From an uncultured bacterium (GTDB lineage Bacteria > Babelota > Babeliae > Babelales > Babelaceae): a stretch of DNA of 64,000 nt. Positions 3,959 through 59,063 of this stretch are shown piece by piece. The stretch spans positions 288,001 to 352,000 of the forward strand of contig OY970209.1 of NCBI GenBank assembly GCA_963713855.1. The letters run 5' to 3'. Position 1 is the stretch's first letter; each line of letters begins with the position of its first letter. Both the position numbers and the translations under genes were made by a program. The notes beneath the pieces were generated by a model. That model did not search any database, was not told the origin of the DNA, and saw nothing but the letters and a program-made list of their open reading frames with translations.

Positions 3959-4744
3959 CTATTGTGCAATCGTTATGTTATGCAATAATTTTTTTTCATA
4001 GACCATAAAACCTACGTTGTAGTAGGGCATACGATAATGGGGGTTAGCATGAATACACTCGTAGAGGAGCTTGAGGGCATCGTTCACTTGTCCATTACTG
4101 TACATTGCGCATGCTAAACTATTTATTGTTGCTGCATTTGGGGATACCGCGTGTGCTTTTTGCAACCACTCGATAGCTTTTTTAGCATCCTTTTTTTCAA
4201 AAGCCATCATTCCTAAGTTGTGTGCAGCAGGAGCAAAATCGGCATGCTCTTGGAAAGCTTTTTCAAACATTTCTTGCGCTTTATCTTCGTGATGCATTTG
4301 GTATTCAAGAAGAGCCAAATTATTAATGATGTGGGGATTAGACGGTTCAAGTGCAAGTGCTCTTTCAAGGTAATCCTTAGCAGCTTCGAATGCCCCGTAC
4401 CCAAACATAAGTGTTCCGAGGTTGTAAAAAGCAACAGCATTTTTGCCTTCATCGCGCTTAACTGCTGCTTCAAGCTGCTCAATACCTTCCTTGGCCATGC
4501 CCTGCTCCGCAAGTAACGTGCCCAGATTTACCATTATAAGCGTAGAGGTAGGGTGAAGACCGAGAGCCTTTTTATACAATTCAATAGCTTTTATCGGTTC
4601 GTTATTGGACATCGCACCTTCCGCGCTTTCTAGATACTGCGCTGCTTGCGGCTTTACATGAGCCACCAATGCTTCTTTTGTATAGTAGAAGCATGGTGAT
4701 TTTATTGGAGTGGTCATCAATTCCGGCTGTTGTGTAGTATTCAT
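3959..4744 (-). CDS. Tetratricopeptide-repeat protein
   Basis: Repeated TPR motifs (AFYNLG, ALALEP, NNLA, AAHNLG). Confidence 0.85.
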   Translation of the reverse strand: MNTTQQPELMTTPIKSPCFYYTKEALVAHVKPQAAQYLESAEGAMSNNEPIKAIELYKKALGLHPTSTLIMVNLGTLLAEQGMAKEGIEQLEAAVKRDEGKNAVAFYNLGTLMFGYGAFEAAKDYLERALALEPSNPHIINNLALLEYQMHHEDKAQEMFEKAFQEHADFAPAAHNLGMMAFEKKDAKKAIEWLQKAHAVSPNAATINSLACAMYSNGQVNDALKLLYECIHANPHYRMPYYNVGFMVYEKKLLHNITIAQ

Positions 4745-8269: not shown

Positions 8270-9370
8270 ATGAAGTACTTGTTAACGTGCTTACTACTTA
8301 CGATAAGCATCCATAGTCTCCATTGCATGCAAGAGGGCGAAGATAAGAAAGACCAACATAAGAGTGATTTCAATTATATTCCACCTGATGCTCCTAAGCA
8401 AAAAGGTATGTGGTTATCAAATGAAGATTTTCCAAAGGTATTAGCTGCAACACCGCGCGTATGTGTTGACGTTATTCTGTTAAGAATTAACGAAAAAACC
8501 GGCAAGCTCGAATACTTCATCGTCAAGAGAAAAAATAGGCCCGCCAAGGGTTTTTGGTGGCTTCCTGGTGGTGGAATGAATCCTTGTGAAGAGATATTCG
8601 ATGCTGCTGAAAGAAAGTGTAACGTAGAAGGTGGTTTACTGGCTGCTTCATTCCGCACTGTCAATTTTTTTAGAACGAGATTTCCAGACTCTGATCACGA
8701 CCATCCTTTAACCCGCCAAATGCTACGAACCGACTCATTTAACTTCGTTGTTATAGCGTTTTATGACCCCGAAAGCCCTCGAACCGACCTTTACGAGGAT
8801 GCCGAAGCCGTTCAATGGGTTGATTTTGACAGACTCCCATCATCTTTACCTATGCCCTCAGAACAAGAACGCCAAGGCGTCGATGTAGCATACTTAGATG
8901 AAGCCCATAGGCAGGCACACGACATCTTAGATCCGCAAAGAGAAAATATAAGCAGTTTGATAGACCAAACTTTAATAGAACGCCGACTACTTCGAGAAGC
9001 TCAAACTATAACTGCAAATCAGCCAGAACCGCATGAAGAAGATCAAGAACTTAGACAATTTTCATTTGATGAAGAGCTCACATCGCAACCTAATGCTCAA
9101 GCTCGTCAAAATGCAACTCCATCCCCGCATGCGGCAGAAGTGACGTCACCACGTGCTATAAGGCCAGCTTCACCCACTCCACCAGTTCAAGCACGCATTT
9201 CACTTCGCCAAAGCCCCGCGGGTCAAGGATCCCCGCGAGTAGTAAGTCAAAATTACTCGTCACCCACCTGGTCCTCGGGAAGAAATAGAGGCATCGATCC
9301 AGCGCTGCTATTCGATAGGCTGACTGATCAAAATGCGTCAGGGCAAAACGCGGGCGAAAAGTCAAACTAA
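8270..9370 (+). CDS. Secreted Nudix hydrolase (GDP-mannose mannosyl hydrolase-like) with Ser/Pro-rich tail
   Basis: Signal peptide; TPRVCVDVI..KRKNRPAKGFWWLPGG..EEIFDAAERKCNVEGGL; low-complexity C-terminus. Confidence 0.75.
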   Translation: MKYLLTCLLLTISIHSLHCMQEGEDKKDQHKSDFNYIPPDAPKQKGMWLSNEDFPKVLAATPRVCVDVILLRINEKTGKLEYFIVKRKNRPAKGFWWLPGGGMNPCEEIFDAAERKCNVEGGLLAASFRTVNFFRTRFPDSDHDHPLTRQMLRTDSFNFVVIAFYDPESPRTDLYEDAEAVQWVDFDRLPSSLPMPSEQERQGVDVAYLDEAHRQAHDILDPQRENISSLIDQTLIERRLLREAQTITANQPEPHEEDQELRQFSFDEELTSQPNAQARQNATPSPHAAEVTSPRAIRPASPTPPVQARISLRQSPAGQGSPRVVSQNYSSPTWSSGRNRGIDPALLFDRLTDQNASGQNAGEKSN

Positions 9371-9376
9371 TAACGT

Positions 9377-9410
9377 AAGAGAGAGGGTGGTTAAAACCAC
9401 CCTCTCTCTT
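9377..9410. terminator. Bidirectional hairpin terminator between the convergent Nudix and lon genes
   Basis: Perfect 16-bp inverted repeat AAGAGAGAGGGTGGTT-AA-AACCACCCTCTCTCTT. Confidence 0.8.
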
Positions 9411-9415
9411 ATAAC

Positions 9416-11785
9416 TTAATGAGGATTTTTCTTTTCTAAAACAGTCGATGGAGGCATGAGTACATGGTGAATTACTTCATCAGCGTGGTTAACCCAAATA
9501 ACATCCATATCTTTTGCAAGCTCTTCTAGACCTGCAAAATCGTGAAAGTTCTTGACCGGCAAGATAACGTGATTGATGCGATTTCTTTTTGCTACAAGAA
9601 GCTTTTCTTTAAGGCCTCCGATAGCCATAACATTTCCGCGCAAATTAAGCTCTCCCGTCATTGCGTAATCGCCACTTATTGGCCGCTGAGTTAACGCGGA
9701 AAGTATTGAAGTAAGCATGGTAATACCAGCTGAAGGTCCGTCTTTTTGAACACCTCCTGCTGGAACGTGTAAGTGAATGTCATAATTTGAAAACATGCGT
9801 TGCGATATATCAAATTCTTGTGCATGGGCGCGTATATAGCTTAAGGCTGCGTGGGCAGATTCTTGCATAACGCTTCCAAGTTGTCCTGTCAGGATAAGTT
9901 TTCCGGTTCCTGGAACCACAACGGCTTCAATTTTTACAAGCTCACCCCCACACGAAGTCCATGCAAGTCCATTGGTAACACCAACATGCGATATTTTATC
10001 TGTATCATCTTCGGGAAACTTTTTAGGTCCAAGGTACTCTGAGAGCGTTCCGGGCTTAAAAACGATCATCTTGTCTTGCTCAACTAGAGCGCGTGCTGCC
10101 TTGCAGCAAAGCTTTTTAATGATACGTTCAAGCTCACGAACACCAGCCTCACGTGTATAGTAAGAGATTACCTCGTTAATAAGTTCTGGAGTAAATTCAA
10201 GCGTCTGATCTGCAAGACCTGTCTCTTCTATTGCCCGGCGAATAAGGTGGCGTTGCGCGATGGCACATTTTTCCTCAAGCGTGTAGCCAGAAAGCTGAAT
10301 AATCTCCATACGGTCTCTTAAAGGCTCTGATATTGTTTCTAAGCTATTAGCAGTAGCTATAAAAATCGCTTTTGAAAAATCAAAAGAGACTCCTAAATAG
10401 TTATCATAAAAAGTCTTATTCTGCTGAGGGTCAAGTACTTCAAGCATCGCAGCTGCAGGATCCCCCCTAAAATCGGCGCCTATTTTATCAAGCTCATCAA
10501 TGATGATAACAGGATTTAAAGAACCTGCCTTGCGAATACCTTGAACAAAACGACCAGGCATTGCACCCACATAGGTACGCCGATGGCCCCGTATTTCAGC
10601 TTCATCTTTTACACCACCAAGCGACACTCTAAAATAGGATCTTCCAAGACTTCGCGCAATCGATTTTCCAAGCGACGTTTTTCCCGTACCAGGAGGACCA
10701 ACAAAGCATAAAATAGGTGTATACCCATCCTGCTTAAGCCTACGCACAGAAATAAAGTCAAGAATCCGCTCCTTGATATCTTTAAGCCCGTAATGATCCT
10801 CATCAAGCACCATATAGGCTTTTTGAAGATCAAGGTTGTCTTCGGTTTCGGTATTCCACGGTAAAGCTAAAAACCACTCAATATAGGTACGTATGACCGA
10901 TGCCTCCATCGAATCAGGAGAAGTTTTTTCTAAACGATTAATTTGCCTTGTTATTTCAGCGCGCGCCTCATCGGCAAGAGTAAGTGCAGCCGTTTTTAAA
11001 CGCATACGCTCAATCTCGTCTAAGTCATCCTCGCCGAGCTCCTTCTTAATAGCTTTAAGCTGTTCACGTAAATAAAACTCTTTTTGAGATTTATTCATCG
11101 ATTCTCGAGCTCTGATCTTCACTCGTTCTTGCACCTCAGACACTTCTACCTCGCGTATAAGATGAGCGTGCAAGCCAGCAAGGAGGTCGCCGTACGTTTC
11201 AGCTTCAAGAAGAGTTTGTGATTGTTCAACGCTGAGTGTTAAATGGGAAAAGATAAAATCTGCGATTTTTTCTGGATCATGCATTTTAGAAAGTATGAGG
11301 TAAAAATCAGGGCTTAAAGATTGACCAGCTGCCGACATCTTTTCAGCTACGGCTTTAATGTCCTTAATACGCTGCGCAAGTATGGCACCATCTTCCGGCT
11401 TTGGTGGAAGGCGCTCTCCCTGTGCAGAAAGCATGTCCGTATCAGCAAGAATATCAAGTACCCGTGCCTTACACATGCCCTGGACGAGGATTTTTACGCC
11501 GCCTTCAGGTAATTTTATGAGCCTAATAATAGAAGCTATGGTACCAATGTCGTAGAGATCTTTTGTGCCAATAACTCCTTGTGGATTAAGCGTTTGCTTT
11601 TTTGAAGCAAGAAGAAAAACAAGCTTAGATTCGCTCTGGATGGCTTCGTTGATGCCGCGTATGATCCGCTCATCAAGTACCAACAATGGAACTATCATGT
11701 TAGGAAAAACCACTACATCCATTGTTGGTATAATCGGGAGCAGTTCTGTTACTGCCTCATGACTGTGCTTGGTAAGCGTCTTCAT
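9416..11785 (-). CDS. lon: ATP-dependent Lon protease
   Basis: Lon N domain, GPPGTGKTS, IIDELDK, KDGPSAG catalytic Ser, IGGLKEK. Confidence 0.97.
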   Translation of the reverse strand: MKTLTKHSHEAVTELLPIIPTMDVVVFPNMIVPLLVLDERIIRGINEAIQSESKLVFLLASKKQTLNPQGVIGTKDLYDIGTIASIIRLIKLPEGGVKILVQGMCKARVLDILADTDMLSAQGERLPPKPEDGAILAQRIKDIKAVAEKMSAAGQSLSPDFYLILSKMHDPEKIADFIFSHLTLSVEQSQTLLEAETYGDLLAGLHAHLIREVEVSEVQERVKIRARESMNKSQKEFYLREQLKAIKKELGEDDLDEIERMRLKTAALTLADEARAEITRQINRLEKTSPDSMEASVIRTYIEWFLALPWNTETEDNLDLQKAYMVLDEDHYGLKDIKERILDFISVRRLKQDGYTPILCFVGPPGTGKTSLGKSIARSLGRSYFRVSLGGVKDEAEIRGHRRTYVGAMPGRFVQGIRKAGSLNPVIIIDELDKIGADFRGDPAAAMLEVLDPQQNKTFYDNYLGVSFDFSKAIFIATANSLETISEPLRDRMEIIQLSGYTLEEKCAIAQRHLIRRAIEETGLADQTLEFTPELINEVISYYTREAGVRELERIIKKLCCKAARALVEQDKMIVFKPGTLSEYLGPKKFPEDDTDKISHVGVTNGLAWTSCGGELVKIEAVVVPGTGKLILTGQLGSVMQESAHAALSYIRAHAQEFDISQRMFSNYDIHLHVPAGGVQKDGPSAGITMLTSILSALTQRPISGDYAMTGELNLRGNVMAIGGLKEKLLVAKRNRINHVILPVKNFHDFAGLEELAKDMDVIWVNHADEVIHHVLMPPSTVLEKKNPH

Positions 11786-14023: not shown

Positions 14024-16261
14024 ATGAGGCTTACAGGTGTGCACAAAAGACTTTTAAAAGTAGCTGGTGTTAGCGTACTGGTCCTTTTAACGGTACTTGT
14101 TTACTATCAATCGCTTTTTTATGGATTTATTTTTGATGACTATCCTAATATTGTTAACAGTGTAGGCATTAGAAATGATACTTTTAGAAACCTGTTTTTT
14201 GCCCATTCTCGATGGATCGTTTCCTGGCTTAATGCGCTTTACTATGGCGCTGTTGGTTTTGATCCTTTCTTTTACCGAGCCGGAAACCTCATGCTTCACC
14301 TTGTAAACGGCCTTCTGCTGTTTGCTCTTTTAAGTATACTAGGCCGATCCTCTCAAAACTCTTTTATGGGCCGCTATTCTTATCCGCTTTCCCTTTTGAC
14401 CACGGGACTCTTTTTGCTCCACCCTGTGCAAACTCAAACCATTTGTTACACGATCCAGGGACAGCTTGAGGGCTCTGCGCTTCTTTGTATACTCCTCATT
14501 CTTCTTAGTTATACACTATACGCCGTATCAAGCGGCATTGTGCGCTTTTGGGCTGCCTCGATTACCCTTCTACTTGGTATTATAAGCTGTGGAACCAAAG
14601 AAATAATTATTATTACTCCATTTCTGGTGCTGTTAATTGATTGGTTTTTTCTCTCTAAAGGCGACTGGAAGGAGCTTAAAACAAGGATACTCCTTCTATT
14701 CGCTTTAACTGTTAGCATGCTTAGTTGCTTTTGTGTTCTTGTAAGGCCCTCATACTTTATAGAACTTGTAACCCTTAATACCAAGTATCTTAATAACGCG
14801 GGAAATATGCTCACGGCCCAACCTGAAACTATTATTACGCCAGCACATTTTTTCATCTCTCAGTTTAAAGTGATACTCCATTATCTGGGAATTTTTGCCT
14901 GGCCGGCCGGATTGAGCATCGATTATGGCTGGAAGCTATCTGAAAGTTTTTGGTCTGCAGATAGCTTTTTCCCATTTTGTTTTTTGTGTCTCATGTGGTC
15001 CTACTTTTTAAAAAGATGGTATAACGATAAAACTGATCTTACCGTTTTTGCATTCTTGTGGTTTTTTATAAGCATTCTGCCTCGAGCAAGCGTTATTCCT
15101 TCATCTGAGCTCGTCGTTGATTATAAAACATACCAAGCATCAATAGGGCTTTCTTTCATACTGGCATATCTCTTCCTTCAAAGCACCGAAAGACTAGCCC
15201 TTTGGTATTCTTCTAGACTTTACAGACTCCATCCTGCTGTTTGGCCGGCCTTAAGCCTCATACTATTGACCGAGAGCCTCATAGCAAAAAGAAGAACAAG
15301 AGTATGGGCTTCAAAAAAGGACTTTTGGAAGGACGCTCTTGAACATAAACAAGATAAAGCCAGACCCTATAACAATTACGCGTTTGCCCTTTTAGAAGAA
15401 AAAAAGCCCACAGAAGCGCTACCCTACCTTAAAAAGGCTCTTGAAATAGACCCACATTACTCGGATGCGTGGAATAATCTTGCTTTAGCAGAAGGTGCTT
15501 TAGGCAATGTGGATAAGGCCATAGAGTGCTTACAAAGAGCTATACACTTAAACCCGGGACATGCTGAAAGCTATAACAATCTCGCTGCTTATTATATGGG
15601 CAAAAAAGATTTTACCAGTGCTCAAAATCTTCTTAAAAAGGCGTTACTTATAAGAAAACATTACGGAACAGCGCTCTTTCAGCTAGGGCAAATAAGCTTT
15701 TTTAATGAGAAAGTTGAAGAAGCCAACGAGTACTTTAAAGAGGCTTGTACGCGTTCTGACCGTTTGACGGCTGAAGCACACTCTTGCTGGGGTATGACAA
15801 GCATGCTTCTTCATCGTTATAATGACGCTCTAAAAGCCTATGCGATGGCAGTAAAACTTAAGCCTGAGGATGAAGAACTTCAAGTGCATTTGGGGTATGC
15901 CAACCTTTATACTAAAAAATATCCGGAAGCTGAAAAAATATTTAGAGAGCTTTCCGAAAAGCACAATGACCATGTACATGCTCTATTAGGCCTTGCTGAT
16001 GTATTTATAGCTTGTCAGCAATACCAGAATGCCCTCGATATCTACAAAAAAGTTGAACAGCATGCATCTAAAGAGCCACTTATATTTTTACGCATGGCGG
16101 GCTGTTACTACAAGCTTAAAGATTTGAAGATGGCACGTGTCTATATAGATTGCGTATTAGCAGCAAATCCTTCACCTGAGCTGCAAGCAACGCTTGAAGA
16201 AATATGCGCTGCAATCGAACGAGGCGATGACCAAGCTAAGATATTAAACTGGTTTAAATAA
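14024..16261 (+). CDS. TMTC-like GT-C glycosyltransferase (protein O-mannosyltransferase-like) with C-terminal TPRs
   Basis: FIFDD luminal-loop motif, NLMLHLVNG, LFLLHPVQT, KE motif, WPAGLSIDY, many TM segments, then a TPR array. Confidence 0.8.
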   Translation: MRLTGVHKRLLKVAGVSVLVLLTVLVYYQSLFYGFIFDDYPNIVNSVGIRNDTFRNLFFAHSRWIVSWLNALYYGAVGFDPFFYRAGNLMLHLVNGLLLFALLSILGRSSQNSFMGRYSYPLSLLTTGLFLLHPVQTQTICYTIQGQLEGSALLCILLILLSYTLYAVSSGIVRFWAASITLLLGIISCGTKEIIIITPFLVLLIDWFFLSKGDWKELKTRILLLFALTVSMLSCFCVLVRPSYFIELVTLNTKYLNNAGNMLTAQPETIITPAHFFISQFKVILHYLGIFAWPAGLSIDYGWKLSESFWSADSFFPFCFLCLMWSYFLKRWYNDKTDLTVFAFLWFFISILPRASVIPSSELVVDYKTYQASIGLSFILAYLFLQSTERLALWYSSRLYRLHPAVWPALSLILLTESLIAKRRTRVWASKKDFWKDALEHKQDKARPYNNYAFALLEEKKPTEALPYLKKALEIDPHYSDAWNNLALAEGALGNVDKAIECLQRAIHLNPGHAESYNNLAAYYMGKKDFTSAQNLLKKALLIRKHYGTALFQLGQISFFNEKVEEANEYFKEACTRSDRLTAEAHSCWGMTSMLLHRYNDALKAYAMAVKLKPEDEELQVHLGYANLYTKKYPEAEKIFRELSEKHNDHVHALLGLADVFIACQQYQNALDIYKKVEQHASKEPLIFLRMAGCYYKLKDLKMARVYIDCVLAANPSPELQATLEEICAAIERGDDQAKILNWFK

Positions 16262-21513: not shown

Positions 21514-22845
21514 TTATAGCTTTAATAGCTCAATTTTTTTATCAGAGCTAAGACAAAAAAACTTGTACGCGGGCACAACTACTATGGTTTTGTCGTCCTC
21601 AGTAAGTCGTTCTTCGTGGTTCTGAGTGATAATAATGCCAGAGCTCAGTTTTAACTCATGAAGCCCTCGAATAAGAGCTCTTTTTTCTCTTTCAAAAGTC
21701 ATGTGACTTTCTAGATTCCAGGCAACTTGTATGAGCGCCAATTTCAGATTTTTTTTGGCTACGAAATCAATTTCTAGGTTGTTTTCAGTCTTATAATAGT
21801 ACATCTCAAAACCGATTCTTCTCAGCTCTAAAAAAACAAGATTTTCCAGAAGTCTGCCCTTGTTTTCTGTAAAATGAAAGGCTATACCATTTATTTGTCC
21901 GGTATCGATCGAAAAAATCTTTTTAGGATTTTTTATCTGCTTTTTTAAAGAGTAATCAAACACTTCGAGCTCGAAGAGAAGATATGATTCTACAAACGCA
22001 CCGATATATTCTTTTATAGCCTTATCTGACAAATCAAATAGAATGGATAGATTTGAATAGGAAAATGGCTTGCCAACATGAGAAATAAGATAGACGAACA
22101 GTCTTTCAAGCTCTAAAGGTTTTCGAGCTTGAAGCCGAGGTGCCACATCTTGATAAAGGATTGTTTTAGCATATGAGTTTAGAATGTCATACGCTACTGT
22201 GGGTAGAAGGTTTAAAGCGACTTCGGGAAATCCGCCATACTCAAGCATTTGATCTAAGAGTTTATTCAGCTTGTTACGATTTTTAGATAGATGCACGGGG
22301 TCTTTTACATCTATTTTGTTAGCTAAGACAAGCTCTGTAAATGAAAGCGGAAAGATTTCCAGTGACAGCGTTCGTCCAGATAGTAGGGTCATAAGCTCTA
22401 CTGAAAGAAGTGAAGAATTGGATCCTGTCAGAAAAAATTGTACTTTTTTTTGCTCATAATGGGACTTTACAAAAATAGGCCATTCATGAAAAAATTGAAC
22501 TTCGTCAAGGAAAATATAAACCTTGCCTTCGGGACTAGCAAGGCGCAGATATTCTTCATAGATTCTTTGTAAATTTCCGATTTCCGTCGCGAAGAATGCA
22601 AAATAAGGATGTTCGAGATTTAAGAAAAGAATATTCTTGGGAGGCACATTTTTATTGAGCATAAGATGATTGATCATCTGCTTTAAAAGAGTGCTTTTCC
22701 CTGCTCTTCGCACCCCCATGAGCGAAATAATCATTCCTGTGGCAAGATACTCGAGAAGCTTAGTCAAATATGATCTTTCGATCCCATGCTCGTAGGGCTC
22801 GCCACTCCAATGGGGATTTTGCTCGATAATAACATCTTGAAACAT
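21514..22845 (-). CDS. AAA_14 ATPase with DUF4143 domain
   Basis: QNPHW, GVRRAGKS, FLDEVQ, TGSNS, LSGR, GGFPE, EIDF..IQV. Confidence 0.9.
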   Translation of the reverse strand: MFQDVIIEQNPHWSGEPYEHGIERSYLTKLLEYLATGMIISLMGVRRAGKSTLLKQMINHLMLNKNVPPKNILFLNLEHPYFAFFATEIGNLQRIYEEYLRLASPEGKVYIFLDEVQFFHEWPIFVKSHYEQKKVQFFLTGSNSSLLSVELMTLLSGRTLSLEIFPLSFTELVLANKIDVKDPVHLSKNRNKLNKLLDQMLEYGGFPEVALNLLPTVAYDILNSYAKTILYQDVAPRLQARKPLELERLFVYLISHVGKPFSYSNLSILFDLSDKAIKEYIGAFVESYLLFELEVFDYSLKKQIKNPKKIFSIDTGQINGIAFHFTENKGRLLENLVFLELRRIGFEMYYYKTENNLEIDFVAKKNLKLALIQVAWNLESHMTFEREKRALIRGLHELKLSSGIIITQNHEERLTEDDKTIVVVPAYKFFCLSSDKKIELLKL

Positions 22846-22854
22846 ACTAAATCC

Positions 22855-23011
22855 TCGGAATATATTCCGGATAAAGCTTATTTATTCCGGAGTATATTCC
22901 GGAAGTTGGTAAAAAGTCAATACTGAATACAGGTACAAGGTACACATCATATCAGATGTCTTTCGGAGTGTATTCCGGACTATTTGTCATAGATTCGGAT
23001 TATATTCCGAA
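22855..23011. promoter_or_regulatory. Four palindromic CGGA-N6-TCCG operator-like sites overlapping the ATPase promoter
   Basis: CGGA starts at 22856, 22888, 22964 and 22996; minus-strand TTGACT (22920-22915)-N18-TATACT (22896-22891). Confidence 0.65.
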
Positions 23012-23068
23012 CTTTAAGAAATCTCGTTGACTTAAATTACTTGTTTTACGTAAGAGAAAGCATCGGTC

Positions 23069-28891: not shown

Positions 28892-31336
28892 ATGGAAAAC
28901 ACGTATAATCCGCTTCAATCAGAAAAAGCAGCTCAAGAATTTTGGAAAACCCACGATGTCTATGCTGTAAGCAATAACCCAGGGACTTTTTTTAGCATAG
29001 ATACGCCACCACCAACCGTATCTGGGTCTTTGCATATCGGGCACGTATTTTCCTATACTCAGGCCGACATTGTCGCTCGTTACAAGCGTATGAACGGATT
29101 TTCGGTCTTCTATCCTTTTGGCTTTGATGATAATGGGCTTCCTACGGAAAGATTTGTTGAGAAAAAAACTGGACTTAACGCTTTAACCGTTGGGCGGTCG
29201 GCTTTCATCGAGCTGTGCCTTAAAGAAACTGCTTTGGCTGAAAAATCGTTCGAAGAGCTTTGGAAAAGCATGGGGCTTTCAATAGACTGGTCTAAAAGCT
29301 ACTCGACCATTAGTGCGCAAGCACGACGCATATCCCAACAATCATTCATTGAGCTTTACGATAAAGGGTTTATATACCGAAAAGAAGAGGTAGCTCCTTA
29401 TTGTACTACCTGTAGAACATCAGTAGCCCAAGCAGAGCTTGAAGATGCTCAAAAGCACTCTTTTATGAACGAAGTTGCCTTTACGTCGGAAAATGGAAAG
29501 GCTTTCTATATTGCCACAACGCGTCCAGAGCTTTTAGCTTCATGCGTTGCCGTACTTTATAACCCAAAAGACACGCGATACCAGGAACTTAAAGGAAAGA
29601 GCCTTAAAACTCCTTTATACAACAAGCTTGTTCCCGTTTTTGCGGACGAACGAGCACTTATTGAAAAAGGTACTGGCCTTGTCATGTGCAGCACGTTTGG
29701 TGATAAGACCGACGTTGAATGGGTCAAAACATTTAACCTGCCCTATAGCCCTTGCTTAGGCCGTGATGGCCGTATGACGGCGGTATCGGGTTTTCTTGAA
29801 GGTAAAAAAGTACCTGAAGCACGAACTTTAATTATTGAACGCTTAAAACAAGAAGGGCTTTTGCGCGCGCAGCAACCAATAACCCATGCTGTCAACGTGC
29901 ACGAACGTTGTAAAAATGAGATTGAATATTTCTCGATGCAACAGTGGTTTTTAAAACTCCTCCCTTATAAAGAAACGTTCTTGAAATTAGGTGAAGAAGT
30001 CACCTGGTATCCAACTCACATGAAAATGCGCTATTTCCACTGGGTTGAAAATATACAGTGGGACTGGTGCCTATCCCGTCAACGCTTTTATGGAATACCC
30101 TTTCCTGTTTGGTATTGTAAGCAGTGCGGGACGATGATTTTTGCTTCAAAAAACGAGCTACCAGTCGATCCTCAGGAAACAATTCCCAAGAATGCTTGTA
30201 CTGAGTGTGGTTCTAAAGAGTTTGTACCTGATACCGACGTTATGGATACGTGGAATACTTCATCTTTGACACCGTATATTTGCAAAGAACTTTACGGCAA
30301 AGACGGTTCTTTTATACCGATGAGCATGCGGCCTCAGGCGCACGACATCATACGCACGTGGGCTTTTGATACGATTGTAAAAGTATGGATGCACGATCAA
30401 ACTATTCCCTGGAAAGAGCTCATGATATCGGGGCATGTCCAGACTCCCCAAGGTGAGAAAATTTCAAAGTCACAAGGAAATAGTCCGCTCGTTCCTGAAA
30501 ATCTCCTTAAAATGTACCCTGCAGACGTCATACGCTATTGGACCGCATCAGCAGCACTTGGAACTGATGTAGCATTTTCTGAGACTCAGCTTAAGATAGG
30601 GCAGCGCCTTCTTATTAAGCTATGGAACGCGTTTCGATTTATTGAGCAGTATGCTCAAAACACCGATTGCACAGAATATAGTCTTCTTGATAAGTGGATA
30701 ACAAAACGTTGTCAGGATACGCTACTTGAATATCAACGCTCTTTTGACGCCTATGAATTCAACCTAGCTCTTGAAAAAGTCGAACGCTTTTTCTGGCATG
30801 ATTTTTGTGATAACTATCTTGAACTTATTAAAGACCGTTTGTTTAATCCTCAGCTTTACAGTGCATCAGAAGTTGCATCCACACGCAGTACATTATCCCG
30901 TGTTGGTATGCGTATACTCCAGCTTTTTGCTCCATACATGCCACATATTACCGAAACTATTTATGGACAGCTTTTTAAGAATGCTTATGAAAGTATTTCG
31001 CTTCACCAGACACGATTCAAAGCCATCCCTTTGCTTGACGTTCGCCTTGATCAAATAGCAGCGATAGAACCTTTACTTGAAGTGATCAACCAAGTCCGAA
31101 AACTTAAAAGCGATCACCACCTGTCTCTTAAAACGGGCTTAAAAGTTATTCATATACACATACAAAAGGAGAAATTAACTATTGTGCGCGACCTTCTTTT
31201 ACCGCTCGAACAAATTATCAAAGGCATTACACGGGCTGAAATGATCGATTATGAAGCTACCTATGAGCAGTCTCTAGAAGGAGCTCTTTTACAAGAAAAG
31301 ACTGATGGTTTTCATGTTTGGGTAAAGCTCTCGTGA
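28892..31336 (+). CDS. valS: Valyl-tRNA synthetase (type 2, archaeal-like subfamily)
   Basis: DTPPPTVSGSLHIGH, GFDDNGLPTER, DWCLSRQR, RPQAHDIIRTW, KISKS. Confidence 0.95.
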   Translation: MENTYNPLQSEKAAQEFWKTHDVYAVSNNPGTFFSIDTPPPTVSGSLHIGHVFSYTQADIVARYKRMNGFSVFYPFGFDDNGLPTERFVEKKTGLNALTVGRSAFIELCLKETALAEKSFEELWKSMGLSIDWSKSYSTISAQARRISQQSFIELYDKGFIYRKEEVAPYCTTCRTSVAQAELEDAQKHSFMNEVAFTSENGKAFYIATTRPELLASCVAVLYNPKDTRYQELKGKSLKTPLYNKLVPVFADERALIEKGTGLVMCSTFGDKTDVEWVKTFNLPYSPCLGRDGRMTAVSGFLEGKKVPEARTLIIERLKQEGLLRAQQPITHAVNVHERCKNEIEYFSMQQWFLKLLPYKETFLKLGEEVTWYPTHMKMRYFHWVENIQWDWCLSRQRFYGIPFPVWYCKQCGTMIFASKNELPVDPQETIPKNACTECGSKEFVPDTDVMDTWNTSSLTPYICKELYGKDGSFIPMSMRPQAHDIIRTWAFDTIVKVWMHDQTIPWKELMISGHVQTPQGEKISKSQGNSPLVPENLLKMYPADVIRYWTASAALGTDVAFSETQLKIGQRLLIKLWNAFRFIEQYAQNTDCTEYSLLDKWITKRCQDTLLEYQRSFDAYEFNLALEKVERFFWHDFCDNYLELIKDRLFNPQLYSASEVASTRSTLSRVGMRILQLFAPYMPHITETIYGQLFKNAYESISLHQTRFKAIPLLDVRLDQIAAIEPLLEVINQVRKLKSDHHLSLKTGLKVIHIHIQKEKLTIVRDLLLPLEQIIKGITRAEMIDYEATYEQSLEGALLQEKTDGFHVWVKLS

Positions 31337-31794
31337 TAACACTTCGTAACACACAGCGTTCCATCCGCATTGATACTAAGGTCTTAAAAAAAGATGCGCA
31401 AAAAGTGCTAGAAATCCTTAACTACGAAGACTATGACTTAGGCATTTGGATTACCAACGATCGAACGATACGAAGGTACAACAAAGCGTATCGGCATAAA
31501 GATGTACCGACTGATATTCTTTCTTTCCCGTTTTACAAAGACCTTAATCCGGAAAAACGGATTAAGGCAAAAAGCGCCGAGGAAAAAAATATAGGGGATC
31601 TTATTATTTCAGCACCTTACGTTGCGGCAAGGCTTTCGGAGTACGGTACTTCATTGTCTGAAAGATTGCGCGTTCTTTTAGTTCATGGCATTTGCCATTT
31701 GTTAGGCTATGATCACGAAACAGACGCAGATTATCGCCGCATGAAAGCAAAAGAAAATTCCATACTTAAAAAACTTTGTAGAGTCACTAAATAG
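31333..31794 (+). CDS. ybeY: rRNA maturation endoribonuclease YbeY
   Basis: PTDILSFP, GDLIIS, HGICHLLGYDH; GTG start overlaps the valS stop. Confidence 0.95.
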   Translation: MITLRNTQRSIRIDTKVLKKDAQKVLEILNYEDYDLGIWITNDRTIRRYNKAYRHKDVPTDILSFPFYKDLNPEKRIKAKSAEEKNIGDLIISAPYVAARLSEYGTSLSERLRVLLVHGICHLLGYDHETDADYRRMKAKENSILKKLCRVTK

Positions 31795-31813
31795 TAAGCC
31801 AAAGAGTAATGGG

Positions 31814-32039
31814 CGCCTACGCGGCGAGCGCTCATGAGCCTGTGCACAGGCTTTATGACCCTTGACCCTGTGCTTAAACTTTTTATGGTTATTTAATATA
31901 CCAGAAAGGGAATCCCTTTCTGGTATATGTGCTAATGAGATAGGCCGGGTTTACCGGTCTATCTCATACACAATAAGTATGTAACATGCAAAACAAGCAA
32001 CAGGTGCAGGACAATGTCCTGCCGCTCGCCGCGTAGGCG
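31814..32039. other. Branched palindromic element (structured ncRNA or MITE/REP-like DNA element)
   Basis: Perfect 17-bp terminal inverted repeat enclosing four hairpins and an inner long-range stem. Confidence 0.6.
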
Positions 32040-32081
32040 TATCCTCATTCATATTTCAGCACAGAACCTAGAAAAATGAGA

Positions 32082-33350
32082 TCAAACGTTCTTTAAAAAA
32101 AGTATTAGCTCACTTTGAGGCACTTTGGTTGTAGTCGACTTTCTCATATCTTTGACGGTAACGAAATTTCCGGCTTTTTCATCACTACCAATTAAAATAG
32201 CTGTAGCAGCCTGCATGCTATCTGCTTTTCTGAGCATACTCTTGAGTGATTTTCCCTCTAAAAAGGGCTCAGCACGAAGCTGATGCGCATGTAGCTCATC
32301 GGTTAGAAGTAAGGCAAGTTCTACAGTGTTTTCATCCATTGGTAGAATGCAGTGCAATGGTAGCACAGGCAAAAGCGTTATAGGTGCGTTTTCTAGCAGT
32401 AAAAGTACACGCTCAACACCAATAGCGGCACCTAAGGCGGGATAGTCTCGTTCACTTTCTATCTGACGAGCGAGTCCATCATAGCGACCACCGGCGCAAA
32501 AAGCATTCTGTGCGCCAAGACCACCTACACTTACAAACTCAAAGACAAGCTTATTGTAATAATCAAGACCACGAACCAAAAATGGCATCAACGTATATGA
32601 AACAGAAAGCAGATGGAGAAGGTTCTGTATAGACTGCCATTCCTTTTTACAGGAACTACAAAGAAAATCAGTAATAACTGGGGCATTTTTTAAAAAGTCC
32701 TGGCATTCAGGATTTTTGCAATCTAGAACGCGAAGCACATTTGACGTACTACGCGTGGCACACACGTCGCACACTTTCTGAATGTCTTTTTCCAAGAACG
32801 CCTGTAAAGCACTTCTATAAGAAGCTCTATCATCTTGACAGCCTAAAAAATTGATGAGTAGAGCATAGTCACTGAGCATGAATTGTTCGCTAAAAAGCCG
32901 ATCAAGCATCATGAGAAAATAAGCATCCTGCGCTGCAGTAGCAGGGACATCTGGCGAGCCTATGAGCTCAATACTCACCTGGTAAAACTCACGATAGCGC
33001 CCTTTTTGTGGGCGCTCATGCCTGAACACGGGACCATACGTAAACACTTTCCACGGCAGGTTTGTCGGATTACTCATAAGAAATGCACGCATGATCGAAG
33101 CAGTAATCTCAGGGCGAAGCGTCAATTGTTCATCACCGTCTTCTTTAGCTGATCTTACGAAGTACATCTCTTTGGTAACAATGTCCGTTTGATTACCGAC
33201 AGCGCGCTGAAAAAGTTCTGCTTTTTCAATAAGTGGCGTAATTATTTCTTGAAAATTGTAATATACAAGATGCTTTTTTACCTTTTCTACCAAAAAATTA
33301 CGTAAGCTGAGGTCAAAAATGTCTTGTGTGCCTTTAACACGCGTAAGCAT
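32082..33350 (-). CDS. hisS: Histidyl-tRNA synthetase
   Basis: RVKGTQD, LRPEITAS, FRHERPQKGRYREF, LVRGLDYY, GGRYDGL. Confidence 0.97.
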   Translation of the reverse strand: MLTRVKGTQDIFDLSLRNFLVEKVKKHLVYYNFQEIITPLIEKAELFQRAVGNQTDIVTKEMYFVRSAKEDGDEQLTLRPEITASIMRAFLMSNPTNLPWKVFTYGPVFRHERPQKGRYREFYQVSIELIGSPDVPATAAQDAYFLMMLDRLFSEQFMLSDYALLINFLGCQDDRASYRSALQAFLEKDIQKVCDVCATRSTSNVLRVLDCKNPECQDFLKNAPVITDFLCSSCKKEWQSIQNLLHLLSVSYTLMPFLVRGLDYYNKLVFEFVSVGGLGAQNAFCAGGRYDGLARQIESERDYPALGAAIGVERVLLLLENAPITLLPVLPLHCILPMDENTVELALLLTDELHAHQLRAEPFLEGKSLKSMLRKADSMQAATAILIGSDEKAGNFVTVKDMRKSTTTKVPQSELILFLKNV

Positions 33351-38914: not shown

Positions 38915-38938
38915 AAGATGCATTTTCCAGGGGCTAGT

Positions 38939-40387
38939 ATGTTCAAAATAAAGCTGACTCTTTTTCTCATATGCGCACTTTTAATAAAACCTTCACATGC
39001 AATGGAAGACTCTCATAAAAAAGCCACTAAAAAGTTATTTATTGCAGCGGCCAACGGCGACATTGAAAAAGTCCGAGAAGCATTACAAGAACAAGCTGAC
39101 GTAAATGCTGCCAAGAAAAATGGCCACACCCCTCTATTCTATGCAATACTTTACAATGAACCAGAAGTAGCTCGGATTCTTCTTGAAAATGGTGCTTTAC
39201 CTAACGTGCGAAGTAGAGGTACCTGCTGGGAAGTTAAAGGATCTACGCCTCTTCAGCACGCAGTTAATAGAAGAGAACCAAACAGAGCACTGGTTGAGCT
39301 TTTGCTCGCACATGGAGCTGATGTTCTTGCCCAAGATGACGCTGGGGACAACGCTTTAACGTATGCCATACGATCTTTCACCCCATTAGAAATACAGCGA
39401 CTACTTTTAGTAGCAGGTGCTGAACCAAATCAGCAAAACAGATATGGTGAAACTCCGCTTCTCTTTTCTTCTAGAGAAGGTCAGTCAGAAACGGTAAGAC
39501 TCCTTTTAGAATTTGGTGCGCATCCTGATATCCCTGACAAATCGGGCCATTTTGCTTTATCTGAGGCCGCTTATGGAAAAATAATTGGACGCTTCCTAAG
39601 AAATGCATGGACACTTAGTAGCGATGAACGTGAGGCAATAGCTATTGCACTTCTTGAACATGGAGCAAATACCACTATGATAACGAGCGAATCCGAACTT
39701 GAGGCCAACAGATGCCTAAGGCCTCACATGTTAGAACTGCTACGCGTGTACGGAGCGGACATTGAAGAATCATCCAGAGCTCAATTAACCGAAATAGAAC
39801 AAGAAAGAATTGATACCCTTCTTGTAACCAGACACCGACCTTTGCTATTAACAACATTCTTACGTAACGCTGCTTCGAGAGGAAATTTAGAAATATTTAG
39901 CCTATCATTTGCGCAGGTCAGTCCGAAATCAGAACTCATAGTAGAGCTTTTCTTAAAAGCTGCTTCAAGAGGACATGTGTCAATACTTAATTTTTTGTCC
40001 AATAATGAGAATATTGATATTAGAAGCATCCTAACACCCGAAGCTTTATATCAAGCACTTTTGCGCGCTTCTGTAAACGGACACAGTGCAGCGGCGCGTT
40101 TTATTCTAGAATTTAACTTCGAGCATGTTCGAATGATGGATGTGAACATCGTAAGAAGAGTCAATTACCTACTTCACAGTTCATGGCCCAGCGAGCAGCT
40201 GAGTAATGAGTATGTGATCATACACGCTTTACTTCTCAACCATCAACAGAGAAGGCTTGAAAGTGTTCTTGAAGCCTTTCAACCAAACAATACTGTCCCT
40301 CGAGACACGCCTAGCGAGGCAATGCTTCCAATTCCTGATCTAGAAGAACAAATACAACAAATGCATATTGGTTTACCATTTGAGTAG
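38939..40387 (+). CDS. Secreted ankyrin-repeat protein
   Basis: Signal peptide..HAMED; GHTPLFYA, GSTPLQHA, GETPLLFS ANK repeats. Confidence 0.88.
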   Translation: MFKIKLTLFLICALLIKPSHAMEDSHKKATKKLFIAAANGDIEKVREALQEQADVNAAKKNGHTPLFYAILYNEPEVARILLENGALPNVRSRGTCWEVKGSTPLQHAVNRREPNRALVELLLAHGADVLAQDDAGDNALTYAIRSFTPLEIQRLLLVAGAEPNQQNRYGETPLLFSSREGQSETVRLLLEFGAHPDIPDKSGHFALSEAAYGKIIGRFLRNAWTLSSDEREAIAIALLEHGANTTMITSESELEANRCLRPHMLELLRVYGADIEESSRAQLTEIEQERIDTLLVTRHRPLLLTTFLRNAASRGNLEIFSLSFAQVSPKSELIVELFLKAASRGHVSILNFLSNNENIDIRSILTPEALYQALLRASVNGHSAAARFILEFNFEHVRMMDVNIVRRVNYLLHSSWPSEQLSNEYVIIHALLLNHQQRRLESVLEAFQPNNTVPRDTPSEAMLPIPDLEEQIQQMHIGLPFE

Positions 40388-40408: not shown

Positions 40409-41512
40409 TTACGAGAACCTGATTGGTCTGTATAACTGTTTTATCGATAAGAGAGCGGCGATAATTGTGGCATACATAAGAAACTGTGCTGCATGTCGAG
40501 GGTTTTCCTTAGCCAGAGAAAGTAATATAAAAGGGGCTGATGCTATCCCGAATAATGTTCCAAGCGCCCCAGCAATCTTCAAAGTTTTTTCAAGAGGATA
40601 ATAGTGGCAACTGTCATTCGCATAATAGAGCCCCTTTTGGTGGCAAGTAATAATTTTTACAATCTCCTTTGCGTTTTCAGAAGAATCTTTTGATAACTCA
40701 CCTGAGCTTACTCTTTCTATTACATCATCAGTAATTTTAGCGCCTTGTGATAAAAGAAAATTGACCATAGCGGGACGCCTAGCTGATATTGCTGTATCAA
40801 GAGCTGAAAAATCATCTTTGTCCTTAACATTGATCTCTGCTCCACTATCAAGAAGAAGTTTTGCCATTTTGATTCTTCCACTACCTGCAGCTACAGAAAG
40901 AGCGTCTTCTTTCAACATTGTCCTCTTTGTAACATCTGCATTATGCTTCAACAACCACTCAGCTGCAGCTAATTGACCTTTTTCGGCCGCTACCATCAAA
41001 GCAGTTTTGCCACACCTGTTCAAGCTATCAATAGCTACGCCCAAATCTAAAAGCACTTCAAGGACTCGTATATTACCGCTTGCTGCAGCCAAAAGCAGAT
41101 GATTCTGAAGGTGAACTTTGTATTGTTCCGTTCCTTTTGGGTATAACTCAATGTTTTCCAAGGTAGCCTTTAAAGGCTCTTTTAATGTTCCCTGCACCTG
41201 AGGGTAAATTTTCATTAGTGGACAAGACAACAAAATTTCGTATTGCTTCGTCGCGTCAGGATACGCCCCGCTATCTTCATATGAAGTCTTTTTGAGCTCT
41301 TCTCGTTCATTAGGTAAAGCACTGGATTCGCCTTCGGTATAGACACCATCATCACTTGTGCCAGGAACATTTGTAACTAACTGCTCATTACTGGGTGGAA
41401 GCGCTACCGCAGTATTTGAAGAATCAGTGAGTGCTTCATCATAAGCACTTACTAGCACGCAATTGTTTAAGAGAAAAAATAACGCGTAAAGCACAGTGTA
41501 GGTAATGCGCAT
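40409..41512 (-). CDS. Secreted ankyrin-repeat protein with C-terminal TM hairpin
   Basis: GKTALMVAAEKG, GAEINVKD; two C-terminal hydrophobic helices. ORF-track start is 41569. Confidence 0.85.
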   Translation of the reverse strand: MRITYTVLYALFFLLNNCVLVSAYDEALTDSSNTAVALPPSNEQLVTNVPGTSDDGVYTEGESSALPNEREELKKTSYEDSGAYPDATKQYEILLSCPLMKIYPQVQGTLKEPLKATLENIELYPKGTEQYKVHLQNHLLLAAASGNIRVLEVLLDLGVAIDSLNRCGKTALMVAAEKGQLAAAEWLLKHNADVTKRTMLKEDALSVAAGSGRIKMAKLLLDSGAEINVKDKDDFSALDTAISARRPAMVNFLLSQGAKITDDVIERVSSGELSKDSSENAKEIVKIITCHQKGLYYANDSCHYYPLEKTLKIAGALGTLFGIASAPFILLSLAKENPRHAAQFLMYATIIAALLSIKQLYRPIRFS

Positions 41513-41866
41513 TCTTAATCCTTTTTTTAAGAACTTATTTTTTATCATGATAACAATAATATTATACAAATTGCAATATTTATATCTGGTGCTTCTAGCA
41601 CAACGTCGTTATCGACTTGCACCAATATGTTAATTTTTGACTTATACCTAACTTTTTTAAATACTTGTCATGACTTCCCACACTTAGAGCTATGAAATCT
41701 CAACATTCCTGCTCATTTTTACCATTACGAGAGCAAATCCATCGAGATCCCACTCAGATTTCAGTATCTTTTTTATTATAATTTGAAAATTATTGACTTT
41801 ATTTTATATAATTTTTTACATTGAGGTAAAGGGATATCAAAACCACCTTAAAGTAGGAGACTACAT

Positions 41867-57383: not shown

Positions 57384-57707
57384 TTATTACGTCCTTTAAA
57401 AAACCGATTTAATTCTTTTTCAAAGAGTTGTCGAGCAAACGCTACCACCGGATTTTGATCTTGGCAATTCTCGAGTAGATTGACCAATACTACCTTGCAA
57501 ATTATCCATCACTTAATCGAATAATTTTACATGCAATTCTTCGTTGAGCGTCAAAATGCCACTTTAAGCCACAAGTATCAAGTAATTGACGGGCTACGGA
57601 GAAACATTAATACTTTTTTGGGTCAACGCTGATTACGCTTATTTTGTCAAATATAATTTTTAACTATATAATTGTTGCACAAGCATCGACGAGAATATGG
57701 GTTATCT

Positions 57708-59063
57708 ATGAGATTGAAAACGTGCTCTATACTAGAAAGCATACTATTTGCGATAGTGGTTTCTTGGAGTTCTATGGAGCTTGCAATGGAACATCATCGC
57801 GATAGCCGCGACCTTAATAGCTCAACGACATCTACCCATAAAAAGTCCTCGAAGTCTTTCAAAAAAGCAAAGAGGCGCACACAAACTCATCACCAAAACT
57901 ACGGCGACAAGCCACTTCACCTAGCAGCCATGAACGGCGATGAAAAAGCTATTGTCGATTTGATAGCCACTGATCATTCTCTAAGCGATGTAAATAGCAT
58001 GGGTGAGGTGCCTTTACATCTTGCAGCACTTGCTGGCAAGGTGGAGCTCATTGAAACATTTATAGAAAGTGGCGTTGACGTTAACGTCCCAAGGACCGAT
58101 GGAGAAACACCCTTACACCTTGCAGCGCTTAAGGGCCAGGATGAAGCAATAGAAATCCTCATTAAACATGGCGCTCTAGTTGATGCTGAAAGATATGATA
58201 GAGAGACGCCATTGCATTTAGCATGTCTTACTGGTCAAGGAGGAGCAATAAAAAAGCTACTAGATCATGACGCAAACATTGATGCTCGCAATAAGCGCGG
58301 TCAAACGCCCTTGCATTTAGCAGCACTGAATCGTCATAAAAAGGCGATGAAAATGCTAATAAAAGCGGGCGCAGATATTAATTGTATTGACGCAAAAGGT
58401 CAAACTCCCCTCGATCTTGCCAGAACAAACAAAGAGCTTGCTAGCTGGATACGTTTACGCGGTGGTCAATCAGCATATGAACTATCTTTGGCGCGAGATG
58501 ATAACCAAGAGCAAGAGAGCAATGCCAAGGATTGTTGGGTTACACCTGCTCATAAGTGTCATGGGCGTCGCATACCGCAGCGCGCCCAAGAAGTTGCCCC
58601 TAATAACAAAATTGGCCTTCATGTGAAAAAAGAAAAAGAAATAGTCCAGTCCAAAAAAGGCATCGGGGAAAAAACAGCTTCATCAGTGTTGAAAAAAGGG
58701 GCAGAAAAAGGAAAACAGCTATCAAAGAACAAGGTAAGGCAGGCTAAACGCCAAGAGTTAACACACCAGCAACAATTACCCGATGTTCAGCCAGTCAAGG
58801 GGGGAAGCCCGGCACCAAAACCAACTGTTATGCCAGATGCAACTCTAAAAGACGCTGCTCAACACCGATTACCCCTACAAACTCAGGATGAGACTATTAA
58901 GCCAAGGGCCCAAGGATCTAGTGCCTTTGCAAGGTGGAAAAAGTGGCTTGGTCTTGGCGTTTTGACAGCGGCTGCTGGCTGGATGGCCAAAGAGGCGTAT
59001 GATAGAGCGCCGATGAATAAGGCCGCACTAAACGATACACTGGAGTCAACGCCATCAGCCTAA
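57708..59063 (+). CDS. Secreted ankyrin-repeat protein with basic disordered linker and C-terminal TM
   Basis: Five to six G(E/Q)TPLHLAA repeats; ELAMEH after the signal peptide; WLGLGVLTAAAGWM tail. Confidence 0.9.
   Translation: MRLKTCSILESILFAIVVSWSSMELAMEHHRDSRDLNSSTTSTHKKSSKSFKKAKRRTQTHHQNYGDKPLHLAAMNGDEKAIVDLIATDHSLSDVNSMGEVPLHLAALAGKVELIETFIESGVDVNVPRTDGETPLHLAALKGQDEAIEILIKHGALVDAERYDRETPLHLACLTGQGGAIKKLLDHDANIDARNKRGQTPLHLAALNRHKKAMKMLIKAGADINCIDAKGQTPLDLARTNKELASWIRLRGGQSAYELSLARDDNQEQESNAKDCWVTPAHKCHGRRIPQRAQEVAPNNKIGLHVKKEKEIVQSKKGIGEKTASSVLKKGAEKGKQLSKNKVRQAKRQELTHQQQLPDVQPVKGGSPAPKPTVMPDATLKDAAQHRLPLQTQDETIKPRAQGSSAFARWKKWLGLGVLTAAAGWMAKEAYDRAPMNKAALNDTLESTPSA

Follow-up and report, generated by a model that had tools for sequence, protein, structure and literature searches.

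A 226-bp branched palindrome between ybeY and hisS of an uncultured Babelaceae bacterium is probably an inverted doublet of a dispersed repeat module

The window analyzed here is a stretch of 64,000 nucleotides from an uncultured bacterium of the family Babelaceae (GenBank assembly GCA_963713855.1, contig OY970209.1, positions 288,001 to 352,000 of the forward strand; coordinates below count from the first base of this stretch). In the spacer between the convergent genes ybeY and hisS lies a 226-bp element, the ends of which are inverted copies of a structured module that we found in genomes of at least seven phyla. On the left, ybeY (31318-31794, + strand; TIGR00043, 125.7 bits against a cut-off of 45) ends 19 nt before the element. 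Its reading frame, listed from a TTG start, overlaps by 19 nt (31318-31336) the end of valS (28892-31336, + strand), whose best match is NCBIfam NF009687 at 960 bits, above the common bacterial valS models. On the right, the stop codon of hisS (32082-33350, − strand; TIGR00442, 373.5 bits against a cut-off of 286.75) is 42 nt from the element. The arrangement in the original prediction, with convergent ybeY and hisS and valS upstream, is confirmed by the TIGR00043 and TIGR00442 matches. A search with the histidyl-tRNA synthetase (HisRS) encoded here assigns the window to Candidatus Dependentiae (Babeliales), the best relative found being 83% identical.

The terminal arms, at 31814-31830 and 32023-32039, match at 17 of 17 positions and are separated by 192 nt. 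The left arm, on the + strand, is the 17-nt sequence CGCCTACGCGGCGAGCG, which we call the head. It holds a mini-hairpin, P1 (31814-31817 pairing with 31823-31826 around a 5-nt loop), compensatory variants of which occur in other genomes, and then the bases AGCG. The right arm is the same head on the − strand. Next to the left head stands hairpin 1 (31832-31858, + strand), which has one G-U pair, one bulged U, and within it an 8/8 palindrome detected by an inverted-repeat search (31837-31852). The sequence ACCC (31858-31861, + strand) then aligns to the tail of the covariance model described below. The right module, read on the − strand, has after its head a hairpin formed by an 8/8 palindrome (32006-32022) and the tail ACC (32003-32005), the two together spanning 32003-32022. 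Further in, an inner inverted repeat, seen in both the sequence and the predicted fold, joins CCTGTGCTT (31867-31875) to AAGCAACAGG (31995-32004), both given on the + strand; its left arm is homologous to the bases that follow the tail of the right module. Enclosed by this inner repeat are hairpin 2, a perfect 16/16 inverted repeat (31896-31928, arms 31896-31911 and 31913-31928), and hairpin 3, which has a 14-bp stem with 93% of positions paired, one G-T pair and a 5-nt loop (31935-31967, arms 31935-31948 and 31954-31967). Besides these two long hairpins, the space between the module arms has a few smaller predicted ones.

The perfect terminal repeat, the four hairpins inside it and the inner long-range stem had all been described in the original prediction, and all were recovered. 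So was the branched topology: in the predicted RNA fold of the + strand, a 17-bp closing stem encloses hairpin 1, the inner stem bearing hairpins 2 and 3, and hairpin 4. The minimum free energy (MFE) of this fold is −125.7 kcal/mol (z = −13.7). The − strand folds at −117.1 kcal/mol (z = −12.0), and with DNA parameters the + strand folds at −69.8 kcal/mol (z = −13.4); in each of the three cases, 0 of 200 shuffled sequences folded as well. At −0.47 kcal/mol per nt, the ybeY-hisS spacer is the most structured of all spacers longer than 100 nt in the window. The longest open reading frame (ORF) inside the element has 40 aa and no support, and the count of promoter-like sites, four against 2.6 expected, is uninformative.

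Relatives of the element were sought in a collection of species-representative genomes, which was scanned with the 17-mer plus four degenerate letters, S-Y-M-R, covering both arms. The scan returned at least 115 loci (464 kb), numbered below with the prefix L. The window's own contig is not among the matches listed, and the module counts drawn from these matches are lower bounds. In 44 of the 124 occurrences, the 17-mer is followed at a distance of 0-1 nt by a stem of at least 7 bp, and the same criterion applied to random positions in those loci is satisfied at 1433 of 23000 (6.2%; p about 5e-22). Removal of duplicates leaves 39 different modules among the matches listed. The remaining 80 occurrences have no strong adjoining hairpin, though some of them are true modules with 5-bp stems, as in the Acidobacteriota loci. 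Many matches in high-G+C genomes are a bare 17-mer, which often falls within coding sequence. The window itself contains the 17-mer, with up to three mismatches, at the two terminal sites and nowhere else, and two or more such matches arose in 0 of 100 shuffles.

The module that emerges is about 45 nt long. It starts with the head (the 4-bp mini-hairpin P1, then AGCG), continues directly into a variable hairpin, P2, and ends in an unpaired tail that starts with AC. Both ends of the element have this anatomy, the right one on the − strand as head, hairpin 32006-32022 and ACC, the left one as head, hairpin 31832-31858 and ACCC. In an alignment of 24 modules the head is invariant and the foot before P2 is AGCG in all 24. 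The outer pair of P2 alternates between G-C and C-G and its fifth pair between G-C and A-T, and P2 is followed by an invariant A and C-rich bases. Over a wider set of 52 distinct modules, the four foot positions are A in 45, G in 51, C in 52 and G in 51, and the tail has A as its first base in 50/52 and C as its second in 49/52. Variation in the head falls on the second base of the 5-nt loop of P1 and on the first base after the P1 hairpin. With 82% G+C, the head is unchanged in genomes that range from 41% to about 70% G+C, while the adjoining hairpin drifts with the base composition of the host.

Both P1 and P2 are kept by compensatory change. For P2, which comprises eight modelled pairs, 98.3% of the cells in the 24-module alignment are paired, and every slid register drops to 38-53%. 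Double-sided changes occur at five of the eight pairs (26 cells), a level reached by none of 500 shuffles; the search pattern had left the complementary 3' arm of P2 and the tail free. A covariance model built on the same alignment gave 55 + 9 matches of at least 34 bits in the 464 kb, on a scale where the 17-mer by itself scores 22-33 bits. Of the 124 matches in the run that gave the 55, 23 lack the exact 17-mer, mostly through a differing head, and these differing heads show that the first 13 bases form the 4-bp hairpin P1, kept by double changes. The pairing CGCC/GGCG is replaced by CCCC/GGGG in both variant-head copies of L056 and by GTCC/GGAC in L010, L018 and L027; L036 has the GGAC arm as well, though the first two bases of the head are missing from its row of the alignment. 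Counted over the 52 distinct high-scoring modules, the compensated variants number two each. The right module of the window scores 52 bits, although this copy belonged to the seed of the model.

Among the matches listed, the module spans at least seven phyla, with Clostridia, Planctomycetota, Chloroflexota, Acidobacteriota, Armatimonadota, Myxococcota and probably at least one relative within Candidatus Dependentiae. Clostridia contribute at least four genomes, including a Clostridiaceae isolate (contigs QXXE01...) with at least 11 loci, and other multi-locus genomes have 2-5 loci each among the matches listed. At least seven records of Planctomycetota carry it, with 1-3 loci each. Chloroflexota are represented by at least two genomes, Acidobacteriota by at least five, in which short 5-bp hairpins stand within a longer palindrome, Armatimonadota by at least one Capsulimonadaceae record, and Myxococcota by at least two records. 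Further module records include at least one labelled Proteobacteria and at least two from low-G+C uncultured bacteria. Judging by a HisRS 57% identical to that of the window, the module-bearing locus L090 would belong to another Candidatus Dependentiae genome, which would make at least one besides the window's own. Around the modules lie ordinary genes, among them uvrA, ruvB, recQ, rpoC, ddl and transporters. Domains of a transposase, an integrase or an HUH protein such as RAYT (Y1 HUH) were found in none of 206 ORFs near modules among the matches listed, many of these ORFs being spurious in high-G+C DNA, and in none of the 52 ORFs of the window; no inverted head pair in the fetched loci encloses a transposase. 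The module is thus a dispersed, structured, multi-copy, intergenic repeat of many phyla, and doublets like that of the window occur elsewhere.

Among the matches listed, the exact 17-mer was also seen in seven Solirubrobacterales records (L033, L055, L086, L091, L092, L108, L115), all in one orthologous context. There it stands immediately behind a TAG that could be a stop codon, and no hairpin adjoins it. These cases may be coincidental, or the word may have another use in them.

Inverted pairs with their heads outward, the arrangement of the 226-bp element, recur in other genomes. Five are 112-138 bp long and come from Planctomycetota (L017, L046, L054, L069, L070), where this is the typical form of the module. 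L031, from Acidobacteriota, has a pair of 163 bp. In L041 the pair measures 347 or 371 bp, depending on which of two alternative right ends is taken. In Clostridia the modules form head-to-tail arrays, for example five units with a period of 39 after an ABC-transporter ATPase gene (L020, 2962-3159), and in a low-G+C uncultured bacterium the bare 17-mer head is repeated six times with a period of 25 (L103, 305-446). Past the module, no alignment is obtained between the middle of the window element and L089 or L103, the other low-G+C loci. Nothing related to hairpins 2 and 3 was seen in the fetched loci, save for the likeness of the hairpin 2 core (CCAGAAAGGG/CCCTTTCTGG) to CCAG-type module hairpins, which also gives weak covariance-model matches at 31905-31919. 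About 10 bases past the tail are common to both arms of the window element, ACCCTGTGCTT on the left and ACCTGTTGCTT on the right. As this sequence lies outside the cross-phylum consensus, the two arms look like inverted copies made within the lineage rather than two separate arrivals.

One Planctomycetaceae locus, L056, has an arginine deiminase gene (345-1655) bracketed by inverted modules at 145-194 and 1739-1788, both with the CCCC/GGGG head. A third module there (2997-3046) has the standard head, so sub-families coexist in one genome.

We regard it as fairly likely that two copies of the ~45-nt module, inverted and with their heads outward, make up the 226-bp element as a doublet comparable to the dimers of repetitive extragenic palindromes (REPs) and to REPINs and BIMEs. 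Published REPs lie mostly downstream of genes, often as inverted dimers 20-100 bp apart, and are arranged as singles, as inverted dimers with tags outward, or in clusters; some have short unpaired tails, and some families have no known transposase (PMC3733652). REPs, REPINs and BIMEs share with the module a short stem-loop with a conserved unpaired 5' tag and, in some families, an unpaired tail of a few bases (PMC3733652, PMC6006769). They share as well the many intergenic copies among ordinary genes, the complementary changes that keep the stems, and a preference for heads-outward inverted dimers tens of bases apart, next to clusters and tandem groups, without target-site duplication. The eight modelled pairs of P2 fall inside the REP stem range of 5-13 bp. 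In other genomes the REP trait of many copies per genome is seen, as in the 11 or more loci of the Clostridiaceae isolate, and the 115 or more loci together gave 64 matches of at least 34 bits; the 64 kb searched of the window's own genome hold one doublet. The kind of element is known. Unusual are the 17-nt structured head, its near-identity over at least seven phyla, and its presence in a reduced, intracellular-type Dependentiae genome.

Within this kind, the module is not easily filed. Its head is nearly invariant over at least seven phyla, whereas REP families, by our reading, are mostly species- or genus-specific (PMC3733652, PMC6006769), and no RAYT-type gene stands beside any copy among the matches listed. 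The terminal inverted repeats (TIRs) of TIRYT genes and the repeats flanking class 3 TnpA-Y1 genes resemble the module in having no GTAG tag and in forming dimers or clusters (PMC3733652, PMC6006769); they too occur in Acidobacteria and Planctomycetes, with copy numbers that reach into the hundreds. Their signatures, GGGGWSAS and a CnGA foot, differ from the module (PMC3733652, PMC6006769). Since none of the signatures on record (GTAG, CGTC, GGGGWSAS, CnGA) corresponds to the AGCG foot, we file the module under none of those families. A literature search with the words of the head and of the module hairpins found no paper, and one on Dependentiae and palindromic repeats returned nothing relevant. 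Neither the 10-mer nor the 9-mer words of the head turn up in the text supplements of PMC3733652 and PMC6006769; as the consensus sequences of these papers are printed in their figures, an earlier description is possible.

If the HUH/Y1 enzymes that act on REP and TIR repeats are a guide, the module could spread as folded single-stranded DNA through a hairpin-specific enzyme. Such an enzyme would read the head together with the adjoining hairpin and would copy or move the unit, and the near-identity of heads across phyla would then reflect horizontal spread of an enzyme-repeat pair. More tentatively, the module may represent a new REP-like superfamily whose head has been kept over at least seven phyla, including an intracellular Dependentiae with 41% G+C, because it is read by a horizontally travelling enzyme or by a universal host machine, with the window element as one doublet of a previously undescribed repeat-enzyme partnership. 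We would put this wider proposal well below the doublet reading itself. REP-type repeats are usually seen as lineage-specific partners of a lineage-specific enzyme, and an invariant head departs from that picture. Its constancy also offers a handle for finding its reader, and a search for genes flanked by modules would be a direct route to the enzyme or host factor.

Several observations weigh against reading the element as a REP-like doublet. With no cognate enzyme found among the ORFs scanned, the proposed mechanism of mobilisation is drawn from analogy throughout. The tag of the module, a 17-nt head with its own 4-bp hairpin and the foot AGCG, is unlike that of REPs, whose foot is GTAG or CGTC. 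The modules of the alignment were picked for having a hairpin, and the search pattern fixed the first four hairpin bases with two choices each, so part of the consensus of the P2 5' arm and of the pairing statistics was imposed by selection. The left module of the window scores 28.9 bits (E = 2.4e-6), with hairpin 1 placed as a 25-nt insertion inside the closing pair of P2; as this is within the range of a bare 17-mer, its membership rests on the head, the well-placed hairpin and the ACCC tail. Both the pattern and the covariance model find just one doublet in the 64-kb window, and pattern, BLAST and the model with filters off reveal no further copy. Finally, the orientation of the modules leans weakly towards a role in RNA. 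Where a Pfam-supported upstream neighbour lies within 500 nt, 17 of 24 modules among the matches listed are in the sense of that gene, and in the window the left module is in the sense of ybeY and the right one in the sense of hisS.

This orientation speaks for a rival explanation, in which the module is chiefly a cis-acting RNA element of 3' untranslated regions, read by a broadly conserved RNA-binding or processing factor, and the doublet provides one copy for each of the two convergent genes. The + strand RNA fold exceeds the − strand fold in stability by 8.6 kcal/mol, and one U-G pair in P1, seen in L009, is on the sense strand. The original prediction had likewise taken the imperfect pairs as favouring an RNA. 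Those pairs (G31836.T31854 and G31944.T31958) are indeed G-U on the + strand, but the inference to RNA rests on these two and on the 8.6 kcal/mol, and the family as a whole has no strand bias. Over the 52 distinct modules, P2 has 365 Watson-Crick pairs, 6 sense G-U pairs, 9 A-C pairs, equivalent to G-U when read from the opposite strand, and 4 others. A ratio of 6 to 9 is what one would expect if the constraint acts on the two strands alike or on DNA in its folded form. Against an RNA element also stand the 7 of 24 modules that are next to a divergent gene, at its 5' end, the 11 that are antisense to the 3' end of a downstream gene (both counts among the matches listed), and the lack of an Rfam family. 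The sequence that the two window arms share past the module fits a single inverted duplication better than two acquisitions. We consider this explanation unlikely as an account of the element, though it concerns function and is compatible with a repeat origin.

The original prediction had also offered a non-autonomous mobile or REP-like element. At the level of the family this is supported, since the module is dispersed and forms inverted doublets; it is not supported in the form of a classical MITE (a miniature transposable element with inverted repeats), moved by cut-and-paste through a DDE transposase for which the 17-bp terminal inverted repeats would be the binding sites. Perfect terminal repeats, a length of 226 bp, the lack of coding capacity and multi-copy relatives elsewhere would all suit a MITE. 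The Correia, ERIC and RPE elements of bacteria are likewise 100-250 bp long, intergenic and often beside gene ends, with terminal inverted repeats and strong predicted folds, but their terminal repeats are longer and family-specific, and target-site duplications are present where the elements are DDE-derived. A flanking direct repeat was found at none of nine head pairs, the window included, among the matches listed; the window element is flanked by AATGGG to its left and by TATCCT to its right. In four of the nine pairs (L031, L046, L054, L069) the flanks instead lengthen the palindrome by 3-14 bp. The conserved unit, moreover, also occurs singly and in head-to-tail arrays (L020, L103), and no transposase was found among the 206 neighbouring ORFs, all of which makes a classical MITE quite improbable. 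The ends of IS200/IS605 elements and of their derivatives without an ORF carry subterminal hairpins that are read as single-stranded DNA, on one strand and without target duplication, and are not inverted copies of each other; those of the window element are symmetric, inverted copies. At the left end of IS608 the distance from the edge to the foot of the hairpin is like the 17-19 nt of the element.

The original prediction had recognised no known RNA family in the element, and this holds: Rfam 15, including 6S RNA, gives no gathering-score match in the whole window. In E-value mode all matches to the element region are far below gathering; the strongest, to a eukaryotic snoRNA model, reaches 26.8 bits where 80 are required. 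At the motif, Rfam found nothing in 20 loci, and 17 further loci were without a match at E up to 0.01. A Clostridiales-2 match on L054 (20 bits against 58.6) was treated as noise because it is absent in 17 Clostridia loci. When the element was compared by BLAST with collections of plasmid, phage and E. coli sequences, there was no match or insignificant short ones, and neither these searches nor Rfam lend support to the notion of the head as a mimic of some stretch of ribosomal RNA. One locus did contain a known RNA, unrelated to the module: in L029 (Acidobacteriales), tandem nadA riboswitch matches of 57.2 and 42.1 bits (591-747) lie upstream of a NadA gene (744-1907).

The original prediction's other suggestion, a novel structured non-coding RNA (ncRNA), is not supported in the sense of a single-copy RNA gene, 6S-like or of a new class, co-transcribed with valS-ybeY. 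The extreme z-score of the fold and the two + strand G-U pairs speak for such a gene. In the fetched loci, however, only the end modules have relatives, and the middle cannot be aligned to L089 and L103; hairpin loops of 0-1 nt and perfect palindromes suit either strand equally well, and the family has neither strand bias nor an Rfam match. We therefore give an RNA gene very little credence. For annotation, the ends of a branched fold should be checked for copies of dispersed repeats before a new RNA gene is named.

Whatever its origin, the doublet probably also serves as a transcript-end structure. Situated between convergent genes, its stable fold would form a 3' barrier in both transcripts and so hinder read-through and exonucleases. 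A comparison is available in the same window: a 17-bp hairpin (9376-9411), perfectly paired around a 2-nt gap and without a U-tract, lies between the convergent NUDIX (8270-9370) and lon (9416-11785) genes, where it is probably the bidirectional transcript-end hairpin. It provides a baseline for how transcript-end signals look in this genome. Hairpin 2 is similar in kind and, given the likeness to this hairpin, hairpins 2 and/or 3 may be the native bidirectional transcript-end signal of ybeY and hisS, around which the doublet would have formed. That the element consists of stacked bidirectional terminators and nothing else, with an incidental 17-bp repeat, is hardly credible despite the convergent setting and the U-tract-less NUDIX/lon hairpin, because two copies of the 17-mer appear in no shuffle and the 17-mer with its hairpin recurs across phyla, and because no intrinsic terminator pattern (a G+C-rich hairpin with a U-tract) is present in 31795-32081.

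Palindromes were also observed elsewhere in the window. The spacer at 22846-23068, upstream of an AAA_14/DUF4143 ATPase gene (21514-22845, − strand), has several copies of a TTCCGGA..TATATTCCGGA-like palindrome, which sit in two long imperfect hairpins (fold of −72.4 kcal/mol). Its appearance suggests clustered operator sites or a further small repeat. The 64 kb also encode four ankyrin-repeat proteins (3-1055, 38918-40387, 40409-41569, 57672-59063) and two TPR proteins (3959-4744, 14024-16261), a content that fits the host-associated lifestyle reported for Dependentiae.

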